64,000 bases of DNA, from the IMG/VR virus record IMGVR_UViG_3300031993_000068, positions 3,568-67,567 of that record, one strand, 5' to 3'. Below the pieces are notes generated by a model. It was not told the origin of the DNA. It did no database searches and saw only the letters and a list, made by a program, of their open reading frames with translations. Positions 16,703 to 34,242 of the stretch are shown here, piece by piece (positions within the stretch are counted from its first letter, which is position 1; each line of letters starts with the position of its first letter). Origin of the DNA: a virus (Duplodnaviria; Caudoviricetes). The translations under genes and the position numbers were made by a program.

Positions 16703-17887
16703 GTGGCAGAATTGCTTGCTACCATGAACATCTACTACAACCTTACCTACCCGTCGCGGGAAATCTCCCCCATCCGGGTAATCATCACGCACCGAGGAAA
16801 GGTGTACCGAAAAGCCGTGGGACTGTCCGTCAAGAGCAAGAACTGGACGGGCAAGCGGAGCGGAAATGTCAAGATAGACTCCGCGCTCCGCGTCATCCTC
16901 GTGGGTCTGCAATCCACCCTTGACGAGTGGTCTGACGAGCAAGCCATTTTAAGGGCGTTAGAGCGCGTTCAAGACGGTGGTTGGATAGATGATACCACTA
17001 AAGTGGTAAACACGCGAAATACGCCCTCTTTTTGGTCTTATTGGGCATCCTGGGCAGAGAAGTCCAACCCTGCCAAACGCCAACGCAAAAATTCGATGGT
17101 CTTAATCCAACGGCTGATGGGAACGCAGCACAACTGGGATGACATTGATTCTGCCTTCTGCTTCAAGTTGCTTGAGAAGATGAATGACGAAGGATATTCC
17201 AAGAACTACCAAGGGAGCGTCATCGCCAAGATAAAGACCGTGATGAGCGAGGGGCAGAAACTCAAGTACCACAACAACTCCGAATACCGAGAGTTCAAGA
17301 AGCCGTCCAACGAAGCTGATACGGCATACCTCACACGCAAGGAACTGGACAAGCTCTGGAATCTCGAACTCACCTCCACCACGGAGAAGAACGCCCGTGA
17401 TCTACTCATCATCGGTTGCTATACGGGTGCGCGATGGGAGGACTTCTCCAAGTTCAGCCGTGACAATATCGTTGACGGCAAGTTCCGCTACATCCAGAGA
17501 AAGACTGGCGAAAGGGTTGTGCTGCCGTTATCCCCACGGCTCAAGGAAGCACTCAAACGCAACGGATGGGTAGCACCGAAGATGAATGACGTGGTGTTCA
17601 ATCGTGTTGTCAAGACCGTGTGCATGAAAGCCGGAATCAACGATATGGTGGAAGTCCGCAGAAGCAAGGGCAACCAGTTCGAGCATACACGGGAGCCGAA
17701 GTACAAGATGATTTCATCGCACACTTGCCGCAGGACTCTATGCACCCTACTCGACCAGGAGGGAGTGCCGATGCGCGAGATTATGACGGTATCGGGACAC
17801 AAGAACCTGGCATCGCTACTGAAGTATCTGCGGAAAAGTGAACGGGACACCGAGGAAATTTTTGGCAGGGTCAAATTTTTCAAATAA
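16703..17887 (+). CDS. int: Full-length tyrosine integrase (arm-binding + SAM-like + catalytic)
   Basis: N-terminal VYRKAVGLSV..KNW arm domain; GARWED, QRKT, HTCR, SGH, LLKY; probable ATG 16724. Confidence 0.9.
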   Translation: MAELLATMNIYYNLTYPSREISPIRVIITHRGKVYRKAVGLSVKSKNWTGKRSGNVKIDSALRVILVGLQSTLDEWSDEQAILRALERVQDGGWIDDTTKVVNTRNTPSFWSYWASWAEKSNPAKRQRKNSMVLIQRLMGTQHNWDDIDSAFCFKLLEKMNDEGYSKNYQGSVIAKIKTVMSEGQKLKYHNNSEYREFKKPSNEADTAYLTRKELDKLWNLELTSTTEKNARDLLIIGCYTGARWEDFSKFSRDNIVDGKFRYIQRKTGERVVLPLSPRLKEALKRNGWVAPKMNDVVFNRVVKTVCMKAGINDMVEVRRSKGNQFEHTREPKYKMISSHTCRRTLCTLLDQEGVPMREIMTVSGHKNLASLLKYLRKSERDTEEIFGRVKFFK

Positions 17888-21761: not shown

Positions 21762-21907
21762 GCTGCGGTGGTGTAATTGGTAGCAACAACGGGCGACGCA
21801 ACGGAGAGTTAATTGCAAGCAATTCGTATTTCTTCACGGTTCAGATAAGTGGTCAGCAATTTATCTTGTCGCGCTGATGGTGGTGGGTTCGACTCCCCCT
21901 CGTGGCT
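21762..21907 (+). ncRNA. tRNA-like RNA 1 with enlarged anticodon arm
   Basis: Acceptor GCTGCGG/TCGTGGC; D-like GTGTAATTGGTAGCAAC; stem GCGAC/GTCGC; T-arm GTGGG-TTCGACT-CCCCC. Confidence 0.6.
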
Positions 21908-22005
21908 CTGACCCTCTTGGGTACTAATACTCATCTTTGTTTGTTTCCTTGTGGCACTCTGCCACATCTGGCGTTCTGCCGAATGTTTGCATTATGATTT
22001 CAATC

Positions 22006-22038
22006 ACCTCTTCGCCGTGATGGTGCGGAGGTTTCTTT
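22006..22038 (+). terminator. Terminator ahead of the first middle gene
   Basis: ACCTC..CGC/GCG.GAGGT hairpin plus TTTCTTT. Confidence 0.6.
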
Positions 22039-22060
22039 GACAACCAATGATACATTATAT

Positions 22061-22312
22061 ATGATTAGACTCGATTTAATTTCCGGCGAGAGCCGCAAGT
22101 GGCGGGAGTTCTTCTCCGCTATCGAATCCGGCGACAAATGCACCTTCCCCGTCGAAGATTTCAAGACGGTCGAAACCATCCGTGCCGCCGCCTACCAGTT
22201 CAACCTACGGGAGCAGAGGGAATATAGGCTCACGGTTTCAGCGAAGCCGTCCGAAACGCCCATCCTCGTGACCATCGCAACCGAGATGAGAGATGGACTT
22301 CGTGAAGGATGA
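22061..22312 (+). CDS. Hypothetical protein
   Basis: 83 aa from ATG 22061. Confidence 0.6.
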   Translation: MIRLDLISGESRKWREFFSAIESGDKCTFPVEDFKTVETIRAAAYQFNLREQREYRLTVSAKPSETPILVTIATEMRDGLREG

Positions 22313-22997
22313 TTGGGATGTCCGAGGCATACCGACAAGTGAGGCTAAAGAATGGGTGCTATACAAGCATTACGCACATCGCCTTCCTTGCATCGTGTAC
22401 TCCTTCGGTCTCTACCTGATAGGGGGGGGGCAGACAAGTCCTTTATTATCAGGCGTTTGCACCTTCGGCATCCCGGCATCCAACGACCTTATTCTCGGTT
22501 CTATGGGCGAGGAATACAAGGGTATGTTCCTTGAGTTGAACCGTCTGGTAGTCAATGACGGTCTGCCACGGAACGCACTATCGTTCTTCGTCTCCAGATG
22601 CCTCCAGATGCTACCCCGTCCGTTGGTAGTTGTCTCCTACGCAGACAGTAGTATGGGACACCACGGCTACATCTATCAGGCGACCAACTGGATATATACC
22701 GGCTTGTCAACGCCTCACACCGACTACAAGATAAAGGGACAAGAGGACAAGCACAACCGGCATCTGGGAGGTGACACATTCTCGCTCAAGGCACTTCAAG
22801 ACAAGTTCGGTGCAGAGAATGTCTATGCCGTGGAAAGACCTCGGAAATATCGGTACTTCCAGTTCCTTGGTGACAAACGGCAACGGCGCAAGATGCAGGG
22901 CGATCTAAAATACCCTATCGTATCGGAATATCCCAAAGGTGACAACATCCGCTACGATGCTTCTTATGAAACAACACCGAATCTAACATTGTTCTAA
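22293..22997 (+). CDS. Mom-like (GNAT-fold) DNA modification protein
   Basis: HYAH..P, GVCTFG.PAS, LELNRL, VVSYAD..MGH.GYIYQATNWIYTG; in-frame G9 at 22422-22430. Confidence 0.75.
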   Translation: MDFVKDDWDVRGIPTSEAKEWVLYKHYAHRLPCIVYSFGLYLIGGGQTSPLLSGVCTFGIPASNDLILGSMGEEYKGMFLELNRLVVNDGLPRNALSFFVSRCLQMLPRPLVVVSYADSSMGHHGYIYQATNWIYTGLSTPHTDYKIKGQEDKHNRHLGGDTFSLKALQDKFGAENVYAVERPRKYRYFQFLGDKRQRRKMQGDLKYPIVSEYPKGDNIRYDASYETTPNLTLF

Positions 22998-23221
22998 TGG
23001 AATTAGATGACCTCATCACCATCGGGCAGACCATCACCGAGGTCATAACCGATATGAAAATCCGTGACGAGATACCGATGACCCGTCACCAGGCGGCTAT
23101 CTACCTCGGTGTCTCCGAATCTACAATCAACAACTATGTCAAGAGTGGCAAGCTGACGAAGAAAACCAAGCACGGCATCGTCGGCTATCTCCCCTCCGAC
23201 CTAAGAAACCTACGCAAATGA
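22997..23221 (+). CDS. Excisionase-like HTH protein
   Basis: MTRHQAAIYLGVSESTINNYVKSG. Confidence 0.75.
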   Translation: MELDDLITIGQTITEVITDMKIRDEIPMTRHQAAIYLGVSESTINNYVKSGKLTKKTKHGIVGYLPSDLRNLRK

Positions 23222-23382
23222 AAGCACTCGGATACACATTCGCAATACTCGGCACTATTGCCTTTATCTCACTCTTCTTCGGTTACACGCACCAGATTCT
23301 CATGGTGGCCGTCTGCGGCCTTATGGCCCACGCGCTCCTCACGGAAAGCAAGACCGAAGAGAAAGGTAAAGGCGGGTTCTAA
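23218..23382 (+). CDS. Small two-TM membrane protein (54 aa)
   Basis: Hand-translated MKALGYTFAILGTIAFISLFFG... Confidence 0.5.
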   Translation: MKALGYTFAILGTIAFISLFFGYTHQILMVAVCGLMAHALLTESKTEEKGKGGF

Positions 23383-23547
23383 GAAAGGCAGGACTTGTCG
23401 GGTCTCGCATAGGCCGTAATCCATTACCGCCACGGGTGCCAGAGTCTTTTTTAGCGTGGCGCGTTGGCAAACCCTGGAACCCTCAATGTCCATAGCAGGG
23501 AAATTTCGGCACGGCTGACTCTCGCCCTCTCAAAGCAGAGGGTTTCC

Positions 23548-23651
23548 GTCACGGCGGTGTGATGGTCACAACGTCCGGCAACCTCTCTCAGTGAATGTAG
23601 TTAGAATACAAGTTGCGCGTGAAGATGGGAGTCCGACTCTCCCCCGTGGCA
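23548..23651 (+). ncRNA. tRNA-like RNA 2 (same family as 21762-21907)
   Basis: Acceptor GTCACGG/CCGTGGC; D-like GTGTGATGGTCACAAC; stem GCAAC/GTTGC; T-arm GGGAG-TCCGACT-CTCCC. Confidence 0.6.
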
Positions 23652-26916: not shown

Positions 26917-27315
26917 ATGGACTTCCACCTAAGTAACACTACCGAAAGGGAGGTATTCTGCGAGTATCTGCGATGCCTCCCCGAAGGTAAGTCCTACGAT
27001 GTAAGCATACGGCTACACCGTGCAAAGCGAAGCAACGATGCCAATGCGTTGTACTGGAAATGGATAGGCATCATAGCCTCCGAAACGGGAAATGACCGCG
27101 AGGTCTGCCACAAGTTCTTCGCCAAGAAGTTCCTCGGCTATGATGTCCGCGAGTTCGGTAGCGAAAAGATTGCCGTGGTGAAATCCACCGCCAACTTGGA
27201 TACCGCACAGTTCTCGGACTACATGAACCAAGTGTCAGCCTTCGCATCGCAGGAACTCGGCATCGTGCTTCCGTCCCCCGATGACCAACTTTATTCAATG
27301 ATGAACCATGAATGA
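26917..27315 (+). CDS. ninB: NinB/Orf-like recombination protein
   Basis: KRSNDANALYWKW..IIA, KSTANL.TAQFSDYM.QV..FA..ELGI.LP.P. Confidence 0.75.
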   Translation: MDFHLSNTTEREVFCEYLRCLPEGKSYDVSIRLHRAKRSNDANALYWKWIGIIASETGNDREVCHKFFAKKFLGYDVREFGSEKIAVVKSTANLDTAQFSDYMNQVSAFASQELGIVLPSPDDQLYSMMNHE

Positions 27316-27655
27316 AACCGACATCATCCTCGCCCTGGAGTCAAGATGGGTGAGCCGCGAAGAACTCTGCACCATGCTCGGTACGAATGACCGCGCAGTC
27401 CGCGCCTTCATAGAGGACTTGAACATACGGCTCAAATCCCACGGCAAATGCGTACTCTCCACATCAAGCAAAAAGGGCTACCATGTAGGCAACCCTTGTT
27501 CGGACGAAGATGTGGCACTCGCCAATGCTATCCTTGAAGAACTCAAGAGCAAGGCAATCAGCATCTTCGAGCGCAGACAGTCGATTGAGAACTTCATCAA
27601 GTTCTCGGAGTCCGCGAAAGCCTCGGAAAGCGACATCCAACTGTCGCTCTTCTAA
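27308..27655 (+). CDS. wHTH-like hypothetical protein
   Basis: VSREELCTMLGTNDRAVRAFIE; ends QLSLF (clamp-binding-like). Confidence 0.6.
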   Translation: MNETDIILALESRWVSREELCTMLGTNDRAVRAFIEDLNIRLKSHGKCVLSTSSKKGYHVGNPCSDEDVALANAILEELKSKAISIFERRQSIENFIKFSESAKASESDIQLSLF

Positions 27656-28493: not shown

Positions 28494-28539
28494 GAGGGGC
28501 GAAAGACGGCAACGGCAGTTCGACTCTGCCCGCCCCTCC
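28494..28539 (+). ncRNA. Minimal tRNA-like element (acceptor stem + T-arm only)
   Basis: GAGGGGCG/CGCCCCTC 8-bp stem; GGCAG-TTCGACT-CTGCC; 12-nt linker. Confidence 0.55.
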
Positions 28540-29620: not shown

Positions 29621-29788
29621 ATGGCAACCAAGAAACAACCCACAATTTTCCTCGCAAAGTTCAACCGTAGAAACGGCACGAGCATCGAAGAGGTCACGGT
29701 CAAGTGCAAGAAGGTCGGCGGCAAGTATGTCGCACTTGACGGAAACACATTCATCCCCGAATGGGCGAAGATAACACTCCCGTCATAA
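29621..29788 (+). CDS. Hypothetical protein (55 aa)
   Basis: Hand-translated MATKKQPTIFLAKF...; TAATG coupling to next ORF. Confidence 0.55.
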   Translation: MATKKQPTIFLAKFNRRNGTSIEEVTVKCKKVGGKYVALDGNTFIPEWAKITLPS

Positions 29789-30057
29789 TGGCCGAGTTCA
29801 TCATCATACAGTATTTCGTCACCGCGCTCGGCATCACATCGGCGCAGAAAGAGTACGCGATAGTCACCGCCAAGACCCTTCCCAACGGTGGGGTCAAGGC
29901 GGTTGTCAAGAACATCCCAAGAGAGGATGCGCTTGAGTACATCGAGGAAAAGAAACTCGTCCTTGCGATGGGGAGCAAGCACGGAAGGGTGTACGATACC
30001 CAAGACAAGAAGTTCCTCGCAAAGTACGGTGGGCGAATAGAGATACCAAGGATTTAA
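29788..30057 (+). CDS. Hypothetical protein
   Basis: 89 aa from the coupled ATG at 29788. Confidence 0.6.
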   Translation: MAEFIIIQYFVTALGITSAQKEYAIVTAKTLPNGGVKAVVKNIPREDALEYIEEKKLVLAMGSKHGRVYDTQDKKFLAKYGGRIEIPRI

Positions 30058-30100
30058 TCATTCACTTTTTAATATCAACTTTTCAAAAACACTAATTATC

Positions 30101-30721
30101 ATGGCAGCAAAGAAGAAGGCAGAGGAGGCCAATCTCCTCACCCAGATGGAAATTCGTACCATCACTTTCCGTATTGAGGGCGTTGCACCTCTTATCGTCA
30201 ACTGTTTCGGCCACGGTGTCGAAGTCCTGGAGGAAGTCACCGATGCAAAGGAAAAGGGACTCAAGAAGGCAGGAAAGGTGAAGCTGACTCCCGAAGAGGA
30301 GTACGCCAAGACCCTCTACTACCTTTCCGATGGTGTCCGCACCGGCTTCCCCGCAGTTGGATTCAAGTCCGCTATGGTTCGCGCAGGAAAGACTTGTGGC
30401 GAAGTCATGGTTGACCTCCGCACCAAGTTCCACGTTATCGCTGACGATCTCGACACGGGACTCATCGAAATCCACGGAGAGCCGAGGATGCGTTGCGATG
30501 TGGTGAAGGTCGGTGGCATCAGCAAGACCTCTTCCCCTCGTTATCGTGCCGAGTATCCTACTTGGTGGGCGAACATCACCATCCACTACCTTGAGGGCAT
30601 CATCACTCCCGAAAAGTTGCTCATGCTCCTCAATACCGCAGGGTTCACTTGTGGCGTTGGCGAGTGGAGGCCGGAGAAGTGCAACAGTGGCTCGTTCGGA
30701 CTCTTCCGCGTGGTCGGTTAG
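30101..30721 (+). CDS. Stand-alone RAMP/Cas7-like RNA-binding protein (Vipr-like candidate)
   Basis: 206 aa; beta1-like ITFRIEGVAPLIV; FPAVGFKSAM; terminal Gly-rich loop GFTCGVGEWRPEKCNSGSFGLFRV; abuts the pentamer array. Confidence 0.75.
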   Translation: MAAKKKAEEANLLTQMEIRTITFRIEGVAPLIVNCFGHGVEVLEEVTDAKEKGLKKAGKVKLTPEEEYAKTLYYLSDGVRTGFPAVGFKSAMVRAGKTCGEVMVDLRTKFHVIADDLDTGLIEIHGEPRMRCDVVKVGGISKTSSPRYRAEYPTWWANITIHYLEGIITPEKLLMLLNTAGFTCGVGEWRPEKCNSGSFGLFRVVG

Positions 30722-30725
30722 TCAC

Positions 30726-31263
30726 GGCAGGAGGGGTTAGGCGCGTCGAGTTTAGGTATTGCTCGGCTCGTCACGCCTCGGTGCGGTTGGGGTCAGTTTA
30801 GTTTAGGTTAGGCTCGTCACGGTGCGTTCCGGCGGAGTCCGGCTTGGCAGGATTGGTAGGGTCTGGTGGGGCAAGGTATGGCTCGGTCAGTTAGGCTTCG
30901 GCTCGGTTAGGCGCGGCAGGAGAGGTAAGGCCCGTTACGGAGGGGTTTGGTCAGTTTCGTCCCGGCAAGGTGAGGTAGGGTTAGGCAGGACAGGCGAGGT
31001 ATGGTATGCTTAGGCTTGGCTTGTTGTGGTGTGGCGAGGTGGGGCAGGATTGGCACGGATAGGCTCGGTCAGTTCGGGTGAGTTTTGGCGTGATGCGTTG
31101 TGGCACGGCAAGGTGCGGTAAACTTCGGCAGGATCGGCATGGTTCGCTTCGTTTGGCTTCGATAGGGTTACGCACGGCGTGGTACGGCGAGGCTCGGCAT
31201 GGCAGGAATGGCTTGGTCTGTCCCGGAGAGGCACGGTTAGGTATCGCTTGTCAGGGCATGGCA
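30726..31263 (+). repeat. GGY-NN pentamer array, 7 units delimited by GGCA|GGA (putative guide-RNA array)
   Basis: GGCAGGA at 30726, 30846, 30915, 30984, 31043, 31127, 31201 and terminal GGCA at 31260; 101 pentamers (61 GGY, 18 GTY, 10 GGA, 12 other). Confidence 0.95.
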
Positions 31264-31287
31264 CGTTTTATTTAATCTTCAATCAAT

Positions 31288-31758
31288 ATGTATAAGTACG
31301 CAGTAGATAGACTTTACAAAGTCCCCGCAGAAGCGGCGGGAAAGGAACTTGAGAGAATACGAATCAAGTACGGCACTCTCAAGCCGAAAAACGTGGTAGA
31401 GGAATCCAAAGACGAATCCTCGGTGCTTCATTCCATCTTCCAATGGGATAACGAAAAGGCCGCAGATGCTTGGCGCATAAGGCAAGCACAAGACCTTATC
31501 CGAAATGTTATCGTCACCGTCAACAAACAAGAGGTCAAGTGTAATGTCCGCGCCTATGTCAATGTCGCAGACAGTCCGTTCAACCTCGCATCATACGTCC
31601 CCATAGACGAAGCACTCCGAAACGAGTACACGCGCAAGCAACTCCTTGACGATGCCAAGCACGATATGGAGAGCTTCGTTGCCAAGTATCGGACTCTTGA
31701 CGAACTCGGAGGCATTGTCAGTCAAATGGAACTGTTCTTAGGCGATGACAAACTTTGA
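31288..31758 (+). CDS. Putative accessory protein downstream of the array
   Basis: 156 aa; LHSIFQWDNEKAADAWRIRQAQDLIR motif; 24 nt after the array. Confidence 0.7.
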   Translation: MYKYAVDRLYKVPAEAAGKELERIRIKYGTLKPKNVVEESKDESSVLHSIFQWDNEKAADAWRIRQAQDLIRNVIVTVNKQEVKCNVRAYVNVADSPFNLASYVPIDEALRNEYTRKQLLDDAKHDMESFVAKYRTLDELGGIVSQMELFLGDDKL

Positions 31759-32149
31759 GAAATTCATCATGTACGGTCTCGCGGCTATCAATGCCGAGCA
31801 GAACGGACTTGCAGTTGGCGAGGTCTTGTCGAAGTGGTTGGAGGGTATGGAGACAATCTGGCCCTCCACCGCCAAGACAAAGAAAGGCGAGGATGCGGAT
31901 GTTCTTGAGATATACGATGAATATCCGTCACGCGACCCCAACAACGGCAATCGTCCCACCGGCAAGGGACAACGCGACAAGTCCACCATCAAGCGACTCC
32001 TTGACGATGGCAAGTACACAAAGGACGAACTGTTGCAGATAATACGGCAGGAAGTCAAGACAAGAACCGAAACGGGAGCGTTCCTAAGAAACTTCTCAAC
32101 GCTCCTGAATAACCTCCCCGACATCGAGGACGAAGACCTCTTTGAATAA
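31745..32149 (+). CDS. Replication-associated protein (initiator C-terminal-like / loader candidate)
   Basis: EIYDEYPSRD and FLRNFSTLLNNLPD; coupled to the primase-helicase. Confidence 0.6.
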   Translation: MTNFEKFIMYGLAAINAEQNGLAVGEVLSKWLEGMETIWPSTAKTKKGEDADVLEIYDEYPSRDPNNGNRPTGKGQRDKSTIKRLLDDGKYTKDELLQIIRQEVKTRTETGAFLRNFSTLLNNLPDIEDEDLFE

Positions 32150-34242
32150 TGACTGACGAGCAAATCAGACAAGTTTACGCATGGTGGCAGACCTTTCAAA
32201 AGGGTAGGCTCACGGAGATACGCATACTCGGCAAGTACACCCAAAGCGGATACTACAAGAATGTAGAGAACATCATCCGCGACCTGGGCCAGTGCGAACA
32301 CCAAGGAGGAGCCGTGTACTTCGTGTTCAACACCCCCAAGGATGCGGTCTATGGACGAAAGCAGTCCGAGAAGATGTCATCCGAGAACAAGATGGCCACC
32401 ACGCAGGACGGAGACATAGCCAAGCGCAACTTCGTACTCGTGGATCTTGACTGCGTAACCGGCGTGTCTGATGTCAACTCCACCGAAGAGGAAAAAGCCT
32501 TCGCCCTCGCCAAGTGCCGCGAGGTGTTCCGATACCTCCGCAAAGAGGGATTCAATGACGGCATAGTCGATGACTCTGCCAACGGCTACCACATCTTCAT
32601 ACCGTGCGACCTTGACAACACGGACGAGAACACGGAACTCGTCAAGCGGTTCTTGTACGCGCTTTCGATGATGTTCTCCGATGAACACGTCAAGGTGGAC
32701 ACATCGGTCTATAACGCATCGCGCATCGCCAAACTCCCTGGGACATTCTCGGCGAAGGGTAGCGAGTACAGTGCGGAGCGACCGCGAAGGATGTGCAGGG
32801 TCTTGTCCGTGCCGCCGGAGATAATACCCACGCACCGTTCATACTTTGAGCGCATCGCGGCGTTGTACCCCGAAGAGCAAGCACCATCGCGGTTCAACAA
32901 CTTCTCCACGCAACGCTTCGACCTTGACGATTTCATCCAACGCCACGGCATACAAGTTACGCGCAAGTTGGAGGTAGCGGACGGTACGCGGTACATCCTC
33001 GACCACTGCCTTTTCAATCCCAACCACAAGGGAAAGGATGCGGTCTTGTTCCAACACAAAAGTGGTGCGGTGGCGTACTTCTGCTACCACGCATCCTGCC
33101 AAGGGAATGATTGGCGCAAACTCCGCGAGACCCTTGAACCTGGGTGCTACGATAGGCGGTACGGCGCACAACCACAACTGCAACGCACTTGGAAACGCAA
33201 CGAGGTCAATCCCCAACCACCGCAACCAGAAACGCCCGACAAGGGGAAGAAATGGAAGCGGATGAGTGAAATCCCCAAGCCGGAGTTCGACCCATCGCAG
33301 TACATCCCCACGGGCATACCGCAGTTCGATGACCTCTTGATAGGATTCAAGCGCAAGCAAGTGTCCCTATGGTCGGGATACCGTGGTAGCGCAAAGTCCA
33401 CGATGATAAGCCAACTTATCCTCAACGGGGCGCAACTCGGCTACAAGTCTGCGGTCTGGACGGGGGAACTTTCCGATGGCGAGTTCAAGACATGGCTCTA
33501 CCTCCAAGCGGCGGGCAAGAACCACAACCGCAAGTCACAGTTCAATATGTTCTACTACACGCCGCAGGATGTGGCGAAGAGGATTGACCCGTGGCTTGAC
33601 CAATATGTCCTCCTATACAACAACGAGTATTCCGACCAATACGGACAACTCGAAGCTGACATCCGCGAGGTGGTGCGGACGGAACACATAGACCAGGTGT
33701 TCCTCGACAACCTCACCATCTTGGACATAGATGACTTGGACACGGACTTGTGGAAGGCGCAGAAAGCCTTTATGAAGCGCGTACATGACCTTGCGATAGA
33801 GCTGAACATCCACATCCATTGTATCGCGCATCCCAACAAGACGGGCGGTTTCCTGCGTATGAACTCCATATCGGGAAGCGGTCACTTGCCGGACATCGCG
33901 CAGAACGTGTTTATCATCCACCGCATCAACCAGGACTTCGACAAATTGAGCGCGGAGTTCCTTGGTAAGAACACCCGTCAAGAGATACTTGATTCCGCGT
34001 GTTCCAATGCCGTGGAGATATGCAAGTGCCGCGACAAGGGTGCTGCCACCGACCACTTCATAAAGTTGTACTTCGAGTTGGAAAGCAACCGCTTGAAGAA
34101 TGACATATCGGAGCAAGTGCATTACAACTGGCAAGACCCCGCCGACATCCCCCCCTGCGCCCGATCCCGAAACGGGAGGTTGGAACAGTGCCGAGGAGAT
34201 GCGGAAGTGGGCGGCACAAAACGAGGAGGATATGCCCGATGA
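32149..34242 (+). CDS. Fused primase (AEP-like) - SF4/DnaB-like helicase
   Basis: VLVDLD, DSANGYH, C-x-F-x3-H...CYHASC Zn motif; Walker A SGYRGSAKST; FLDNL; IHCIAHPNK. Confidence 0.85.
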   Translation: MTDEQIRQVYAWWQTFQKGRLTEIRILGKYTQSGYYKNVENIIRDLGQCEHQGGAVYFVFNTPKDAVYGRKQSEKMSSENKMATTQDGDIAKRNFVLVDLDCVTGVSDVNSTEEEKAFALAKCREVFRYLRKEGFNDGIVDDSANGYHIFIPCDLDNTDENTELVKRFLYALSMMFSDEHVKVDTSVYNASRIAKLPGTFSAKGSEYSAERPRRMCRVLSVPPEIIPTHRSYFERIAALYPEEQAPSRFNNFSTQRFDLDDFIQRHGIQVTRKLEVADGTRYILDHCLFNPNHKGKDAVLFQHKSGAVAYFCYHASCQGNDWRKLRETLEPGCYDRRYGAQPQLQRTWKRNEVNPQPPQPETPDKGKKWKRMSEIPKPEFDPSQYIPTGIPQFDDLLIGFKRKQVSLWSGYRGSAKSTMISQLILNGAQLGYKSAVWTGELSDGEFKTWLYLQAAGKNHNRKSQFNMFYYTPQDVAKRIDPWLDQYVLLYNNEYSDQYGQLEADIREVVRTEHIDQVFLDNLTILDIDDLDTDLWKAQKAFMKRVHDLAIELNIHIHCIAHPNKTGGFLRMNSISGSGHLPDIAQNVFIIHRINQDFDKLSAEFLGKNTRQEILDSACSNAVEICKCRDKGAATDHFIKLYFELESNRLKNDISEQVHYNWQDPADIPPCARSRNGRLEQCRGDAEVGGTKRGGYAR

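Follow-up and report, generated by a model that had tools for sequence, protein, structure and literature searches.

The array of G-rich pentamers displayed above and the two genes flanking it very probably constitute a VIPR cassette, that is, a vipr gene, a staggered array of vrRNA guides and a vap-like accessory gene, in a phage whose host probably belongs to the Bacteroidota. This assignment is based on the RAMP fold predicted for the 206-aa protein encoded upstream of the array, its homology to the Vipr protein of phage SUSP1, the pentamer grammar of the array, the linkage between protein and array across loci, and the family of target sites found for one of the guides, guide 1a (Table 1).

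VIPR (Viral Interference Programmable Repeat) was described in two preprints from 2026 (bioRxiv 10.64898/2026.04.26.720920; bioRxiv 10.64898/2026.04.26.720927). The system consists of Vipr, a phage-borne minimal RAMP protein with an RRM core, a G-loop and a thumb, and of vrRNAs composed of 9–16 GGY/NN pentamers. The target is double-stranded DNA, with which the NN dinucleotides pair while one base is skipped; no PAM is involved, and the skipped base is overwhelmingly the codon wobble position (10.64898/2026.04.26.720920). One Vipr protomer binds each pentamer, the GGY bases being held by the G-loop residues D177-W178-R179 and by the thumb residue R138, and the hybrid between the NN dinucleotides and the target is an R-loop triplex (10.64898/2026.04.26.720927). 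The characterized systems are the type II VIPRs of Escherichia phage SUSP1 and of a Pseudomonas fulva prophage. Natural targets comprise satellites, prophages and other VIPR loci, all treated as foreign, and no self-targets with an NN match of at least 80% were reported. Seven VIPR types are distinguished, which include "staggered arrays" with a 1 nt overlap of the guides (fig. S18); experimental confirmation is listed for the ribozyme and the single-guide architectures only (10.64898/2026.04.26.720920).

Table 1. Features of the putative VIPR cassette and match scores of guide target sites (NN bases matched/NN bases compared). Positions refer to the window.
Feature	Position	Strand	Description
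Putative vipr gene	30101–30721	+	206 aa, stand-alone protein with predicted RAMP/Cas7 fold, phrog_4652
Putative vrRNA array	30726–31263	+	Seven GGCAGGA-delimited units of G-G-Y-N-N pentamers, non-coding
Array unit starts	30726, 30846, 30915, 30984, 31043, 31127, 31201	+	Units split at GGCAGGA
Guide 1a	30730–30794	+	13 pentamers; sole guide for which a target family was identified
Candidate vap (VIPR accessory) gene	31288–31758	+	156 aa, phrog_15946; conserved beside vipr
Own-genome near-match of guide 1a	31889–31926	-	Inside the 134-aa ORF 31745–32149, motif EDADVLEIYDEYP; carrier's own copy, 20/26
Guide 1a site, L160 (VIPR-less sibling)			22/26 (85%)
Guide 1a site, L154–L159 and L161 (VIPR-less siblings)			21/26 (81%)
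Guide 1a site, L166 (further metagenome family member)			21/26
Guide 1a site, G001 (sibling VIPR phage)			20/26
Guide 1a site, L169 (more distant VIPR carrier)			17/26
Site for G001 guide 1 in the carrier phage	27436–27486	-	Inside the carrier's 115-aa ORF 27308–27655; 27/34 (79%)
G001 guide 1 site, L154 (VIPR-less sibling)			30/34 (88%)
G001 guide 1 site, L155–L157 (VIPR-less siblings)			29/34 (85%)
G001 guide 1 site, L158 and L159 (VIPR-less siblings)			25/34 (74%)
G001 guide 1 site, G001's own copy			24/34 (71%)

The locus and its two flanking proteins

The virus record IMGVR_UViG_3300031993_000068 is a complete 67.6-kb genome with direct terminal repeats, and the window, i.e., the whole stretch of DNA analyzed here, covers 64 kb of it. 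The locus is located in the early/replication module of the carrier phage. HTH regulators are encoded upstream of the 206-aa ORF; the array starts 5 nt past the stop codon of this ORF and ends 24 nt short of the 156-aa ORF, which is followed by the 134-aa ORF, the gene for a primase-helicase (32149–34242), and the gene for a RuvC-like resolvase. A scan of the neighboring ORFs revealed the regulators, the primase-helicase and RuvC, but no further cas genes. Rfam reported no CRISPR direct repeat (CRISPR-DR) in the window, and a repeat-spacer array was not detected. Comparison of the locus with cultured phages by blastn gave no match. In the window, ARAGORN found neither tRNAs nor tmRNAs and no Rfam family reached its gathering score; for the array region, Rfam yielded nothing relevant even at a permissive E-value. 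The tRNA-mimic elements proposed in the preliminary description (21762–23651 and 28494–28539) are backed by neither ARAGORN nor Rfam.

The AF2 model of the 206-aa protein, for which 43 homologues were available, has a pLDDT of 83. The top Foldseek matches of the model are type VII Cas7, Csm3, Cmr4/6 and gRAMP (probability 1.0, E-values down to 4e-5), so that the modeled structure is that of a minimal RAMP fold of the Cas7/Csm3 type. The top structural matches are thus backbone proteins of class 1 CRISPR systems (Cas7, Csm3, Cmr4), with which VIPR shares this fold, the use of one protomer per RNA segment and a thumb that periodically breaks the guide-target duplex. However, the period is 5 nt in VIPR, with three bases held by the protein and two pairing, versus 6 nt in class 1 CRISPR, with five pairing.

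A tblastn search with the 206-aa protein retrieved 143 records of cultured phages, phiSUSP1 among them. In the pairwise comparison with the phiSUSP1 Vipr, the identity is 40% over the C-terminal 70 aa (E-value 3e-11), which include the G-loop and the thumb region. The G-loop CGVGEWRP aligns with CGVGDWRP of SUSP1, the thumb residues Y148-R149 align with Y137-R138, and E188, W189, R190 and R149 are invariant across the 43 homologues. Judged by sequence, the 206-aa protein is therefore a homologue of the SUSP1 Vipr that has kept the GGY-binding residues. The carrier protein resembles its counterparts in SUSP1 and P. fulva in being a small stand-alone RAMP protein with a (D/E)-W-R G-loop and a thumb arginine for GGY, but the alignment with the SUSP1 Vipr is confined to the C-terminal third.

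Like the SUSP1 and P. fulva loci, the carrier locus has a small gene, here a candidate accessory gene, beside vipr. In 25 of 33 related loci, a homologue of the 156-aa protein is encoded next to vipr and the array; it is absent from those sibling phages that have the replication module in common with the carrier but have neither vipr nor the array nor the 156-aa gene (in the following, VIPR-less siblings). The AF2 model of the 156-aa protein (pLDDT 87) gave no clear fold match with Foldseek or VIA-align, the top Z-score being 4.8, on a helical hairpin; structure comparison revealed no recognizable DNA-binding fold. Unlike the layout at SUSP1, where the accessory gene is vap1, the neighboring protein here has no sequence similarity to the vap1 product. 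The 156-aa protein may have a role in VIPR.

Grammar of the pentamer array

The plus strand of the array contains 41% G, with G autocorrelations of 0.54, 0.49 and 0.42 at lags of 5, 10 and 15 nt, respectively, and it is the sole region of the 64-kb window with such a 5-nt periodicity. The seven units have lengths of 120, 69, 69, 59, 84, 74 and about 63 nt. Each is made up of the 4-mer GGCA, a GGA-NN pentamer and 10–15 GGY-NN pentamers; in the pentamer columns, G is found in 87% of the cases at the first and 77% at the second position and a pyrimidine in 83% at the third, while the last two positions are free. A length of 5k-1 nt is found in six of the seven units, the exception being the first unit (120 nt), which carries an internal +1 shift. 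This shift separates two guides, 1a and 1b (30796–30845). When guide 1b was examined as an extension of the target match of guide 1a, it reached at most 9/20 on the continued site, and 1a and 1b are thus separate guides. Altogether, the seven units contain eight guides, each with 10–16 pentamers, a size in line with the guides of 9–16 GGY/NN pentamers in SUSP1 and P. fulva.

The unit lengths of 5k-1 nt fit a staggered architecture with guides overlapping by 1 nt. The boundary sequence GGCA[G]GANN can indeed be read as two pentamers with one shared G, and 51 of the 69 GGCAGGA-delimited units across related loci have a length of 4 modulo 5. With the published staggered arrays (fig. S18), the carrier array has in common the back-to-back guides, the shift of the pentamer frame by -1 at each boundary and the 5k-1 lengths. 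By contrast, the SUSP1 locus, in the layout published for it, has guides that are each equipped with a promoter-like leader and a structured 3' tail or pseudoknot, and the carrier array is devoid of both. Its units abut with only the GGCA 4-mer between them, and no conserved tail-like segment is present. A conserved structured 3' tail on each vrRNA is a feature of type II, the SUSP1 clade, and the carrier array does not have it. The probable host from the Bacteroidota is a further difference from SUSP1 and P. fulva.

The NN strings and the hand-decoded antisense peptides given in the preliminary description for units 1a, 2, 6 and 7 were reproduced. A recount also confirmed TC as the most frequent NN dinucleotide (16–17 of about 101). 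The NN dinucleotides of the array fit best to antisense codon positions 1 and 2 (log-likelihood ratio +9.4 relative to the genomic dinucleotides), whereas the NN composition in the array of G001 (IMGVR_UViG_3300031994_000095), the closest sampled relative, tends to sense positions 1 and 2. Decoding with a skipped wobble base, and the argument that synonymous mutation offers no escape from such guides, are right; both had already been stated in the VIPR preprints, the Discussion of one of which notes that wobble skipping would thwart escape via synonymous codons (10.64898/2026.04.26.720920).

If the locus works like its counterparts in SUSP1 and P. fulva, a transcript covering vipr and the array would be cut between GGCA and GGA, which would release eight guides of about 50–85 nt. 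Each pentamer would then be bound by one Vipr protomer that holds the GGY bases, resulting in a filament. Pairing to double-stranded DNA would be left to the NN dinucleotides, which remain exposed, every third target base being skipped; this pairing would block transcription of the target and thereby silence it.

Target sites in sibling phages

After masking of the array, both strands of the window were searched with each guide at skip lengths of 0–3, and the scores were compared with those of shuffled NN orders; the preprint threshold of an 80% NN match for targets was used for comparison. For guide 1a, a match of 18/24 to the carrier's own 134-aa gene (31892–31927) had been proposed previously. 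This score was reproduced, and inclusion of the 13th pentamer extends it to 20/26 (77%). Only 4 of 1,000 shuffles reached this value (P = 0.004), and the match is thus more than a chance similarity. It is also the best own-genome match and stays below the 80% limit for self-targets. The 134-aa ORF lies directly upstream of the primase-helicase gene, a position that suggests that it is a replication gene. Twelve database homologues of the 134-aa protein mostly have the motif DADVEE(I/V)Y.AYP, and the carrier phage and its closest relatives have DADVLE in place of DADVEE; the family consensus DADVEE.Y.AYP fits guide 1a better than the carrier's own copy does.

The VIPR-less siblings have better matches to guide 1a than the carrier itself (Table 1). 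The sibling matches were obtained exclusively at skip 1, the top score among 30 shuffles being 19. Each site of guide 1a has its skipped bases at third positions of codons, and translation in this register yields the conserved motif. Hence, on the basis of these sequence matches, the target family of guide 1a is the conserved motif of a 133/134-aa gene in the VIPR-less siblings. At skip 1, a target with an NN match of at least 80% was found for one of the eight guides, namely 1a. The proposal that the guides are directed at related phages in codon register is therefore borne out for guide 1a, with 81–85% in the siblings versus 77% in the carrier, but for the other guides no target was found in the sequences searched. 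These scores do not establish that the carrier's own copies are too diverged to be hit, as the 20/26 of the carrier is 1–2 bases below the 21–22/26 of the siblings.

When IMG/VR was searched for relatives of the 134-aa protein, G001 alone was found, and the phage family is rare there; in 401 sampled Bacteroidales genomes, neither the 134-aa family nor the phage family as a prophage was found. A scan for guide 1a with the fourth NN left free, in which the pattern pre-fixes 20 of the 26 bases, retrieved one true family member with 21/26 and two copies of a site in an unrelated bacterial acetyltransferase with 22/26. These two copies (L165:1152–1183 and L167:1537–1568) carry the GNAT-type acetyltransferase sequence GDAEVDDMYLAYP and match in codon register, and their score arises purely from the pre-selected pattern. 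Acidic motifs yield false 80% matches in very large databases, so that such scores can be due to chance.

A reciprocal case is provided by G001, the Vipr of which is 92% identical to that of the carrier over the segment sampled. Guide 1 of G001 has 17 pentamers, and its sites are located in homologues of the carrier's 115-aa ORF. The matches were found at skip 1 only, with the skipped base on the wobble position and the translation in register. Among the sites scored, G001's own copy is the lowest match, and it differs from the target in the VIPR-less sibling L154 mainly by K to R changes. The carrier phage is itself a near-target of this guide, slightly below the published threshold of 80%. 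When windows of 10 pentamers from four arrays were slid over ten target sequences, series of consecutive windows with at least 17/20 on a single site were nearly confined to skip 1.

The carrier's own site for guide 1a also allows for a different function of the array, namely that guide 1a mainly tunes the carrier's own 134-aa gene and the primase-helicase operon rather than excluding siblings. The own-genome match is significant, its site belongs to the operon of the array, some 630 nt farther downstream, and it falls 1–2 bases short of the best sibling match. We nevertheless consider this unlikely, because the natural targets in the preprint are foreign and include no self-match of at least 80%, a feature that the carrier array has in common with the SUSP1 and P. 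fulva systems, because the family consensus is closer to guide 1a than the own copy, and because guide 1 of G001 shows the parallel pattern, with its own copy at the bottom. Targets in competing phages, a 1-nt skip rule and a skipped wobble base are likewise common to these systems and the carrier.

The strand of the sites bears on another question, i.e., whether the guides act on mRNA instead of DNA. Guide 1a and guide 1 of G001, the two guides with identified sites, are both complementary to the sense strand and would bind the transcript, the NN composition of the carrier array favors antisense codon positions, and Vipr-vrRNA does pair with single-stranded RNA in vitro. However, most filaments stall on RNA targets, the stabilizing triplex requires DNA (10.64898/2026.04.26.720927), and the published silencing is effective on either DNA strand (10.64898/2026.04.26.720920). 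In addition, two guides do not suffice to establish a strand rule, and the G001 array has an NN composition that points towards sense. An action on mRNA thus appears decidedly improbable, and double-stranded DNA is retained as the presumable target.

The preliminary description had gone further and had assigned unit 6 to the phage integrase, unit 2 to an HTH repressor via an FP-x-LN motif and unit 7 to a further phage motif, MLKIYVSG, all as targets in competing phages. The decodings are arithmetically correct, and P. fulva guides are often aimed at regulators of the lysis-lysogeny decision (10.64898/2026.04.26.720920). The score of 19/28 for unit 6 at the integrase site (17309–17349) was also reproduced, but about 53% of the shuffled guides equal it (P about 0.5), and the match is therefore attributable to chance. 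The readings of units 2 and 7 comprise few residues, lack statistical support, and produced nothing above shuffles in the carrier, in G001 or in the VIPR-less siblings. Thus, of the four correspondences claimed, only that of unit 1a is above chance level, and it is very unlikely that units 6, 2 and 7 target the genes proposed for them.

More generally, units 1b, 2, 3, 4, 5 and 7 had no match in the carrier genome above shuffles at skips of 0–3, and no candidate target turned up for guides 1b and 2–7 when the carrier, G001 and some 170 kb of sequence from VIPR-less siblings, including the regions of the S24 repressor and the integrase, were searched. Additional sequence from VIPR-less siblings, covering tail, integrase and repressor regions, revealed no new targets. 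Exact scans of IMG/VR with a 1-nt skip gave 0 matches for unit 1a (12 NN), unit 2 (inner 11 NN), unit 3 (inner 11 NN) and unit 4 (all 11 NN), and an exact scan of JGI metagenomes with the first 11 NN of unit 1a gave 0 matches as well. A perfect target was found for none of the guides in the sequences scanned.

Distribution of the cassette among relatives

A scan for three spaced GGCAGGA motifs combined with 5-nt periodicity uncovered arrays of the same design in the viral contigs L001, L025, L026, L051, L091 and L119, where they are accompanied by homologues of both flanking proteins. Relatives of the 206-aa protein are encoded at 26 loci of prokaryotic genomes, and 24 of these loci have a 5-nt G-periodic array, almost always directly downstream. 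The organisms are as different as Bacteroidales, Oscillospiraceae, Xanthobacteraceae and actinomycetes, and the Vipr protein and the array are thus linked across phyla. In the VIPR-less siblings L154 (9555–9999), L158, L159 and L160, which were compared with 29761–31758 of the window, the cassette is absent, and an 86-aa ORF and a 58/59-aa ORF are present in its place; in the more distant carrier L169 (6490–7944), the cassette directly follows the 115-aa gene.

This linkage makes it hardly credible that the array is a replication origin, a field of iterons or a sponge for proteins or RNA beside the primase-helicase instead of a set of guides: its position in the replication module, strong strand asymmetry and short repeats would suit such an element, but it is linked to the Vipr homologue rather than to helicases, siblings with the same replication genes do without it, and its target matches follow the guide code, almost only at skip 1. 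A TRAP-like or CsrA-like sponge, a G-quadruplex array, a Rho-related element and an iteron origin were dropped as candidates, because a Vipr homologue accompanies the array and because the NN strings of the array match sibling genes under the published code only.

With the locus taken as a VIPR cassette, one guide of the carrier and one of its closest sampled relative can each be assigned to a particular conserved gene in sibling phages, and for both guides the carriers' own copies are poorer matches than the best siblings, the copy in L169 being lower still for guide 1a. As a tentative reading, which we think possible although we would not favor it in its entirety, a mobile VIPR cassette may mark an arms race among siblings in one uncultured phage family that probably infects Bacteroidota. 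In that case, the guides would be aimed at small genes of the early/replication module in VIPR-less siblings and in other carriers. The carriers' own copies would escape through mostly conservative amino-acid changes precisely at the matched sites, E to L in DADVEE and K to R in KSHGKC...SRKGYH, that keep the match below about 80%, and the tail-less, GGCA-punctuated array might imply a guide biogenesis unlike that of the SUSP1 type. If all of this is true, the copies escape by non-synonymous change, the only route that the wobble-skipping code leaves.

VIPR is so far known mainly from elements of E. coli and Pseudomonas, and the locus adds an uncultured phage family; the published picture of the system is unchanged by it. 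The pairs of sites with 77% versus 85% and 71% versus 88% can be used to gauge the tolerance of VIPR towards NN mismatches, and the compact array without tails is a case in which to ask how staggered guides are cut.

Some further variation was observed in the clade. Two gene orders occur: in the window and in L001, L123, L128 and L132, the array lies between vipr and the accessory gene, whereas in L125, L127, L131 and L134 the accessory gene directly follows vipr and is itself followed by the array. The VIPR-less sibling contig L156 carries, near the contig end (16657–17811), a gene for an IS605 OrfB/TnpB protein (Cas12f-like). In L026 (1706–2875), about 20 GGCAGGA-punctuated units have a scaffold that is mostly G-C-A-N-N, not G-G-Y-N-N, and this array adjoins genes for a Vipr homologue (36% identity) and for a homologue of the 156-aa protein.
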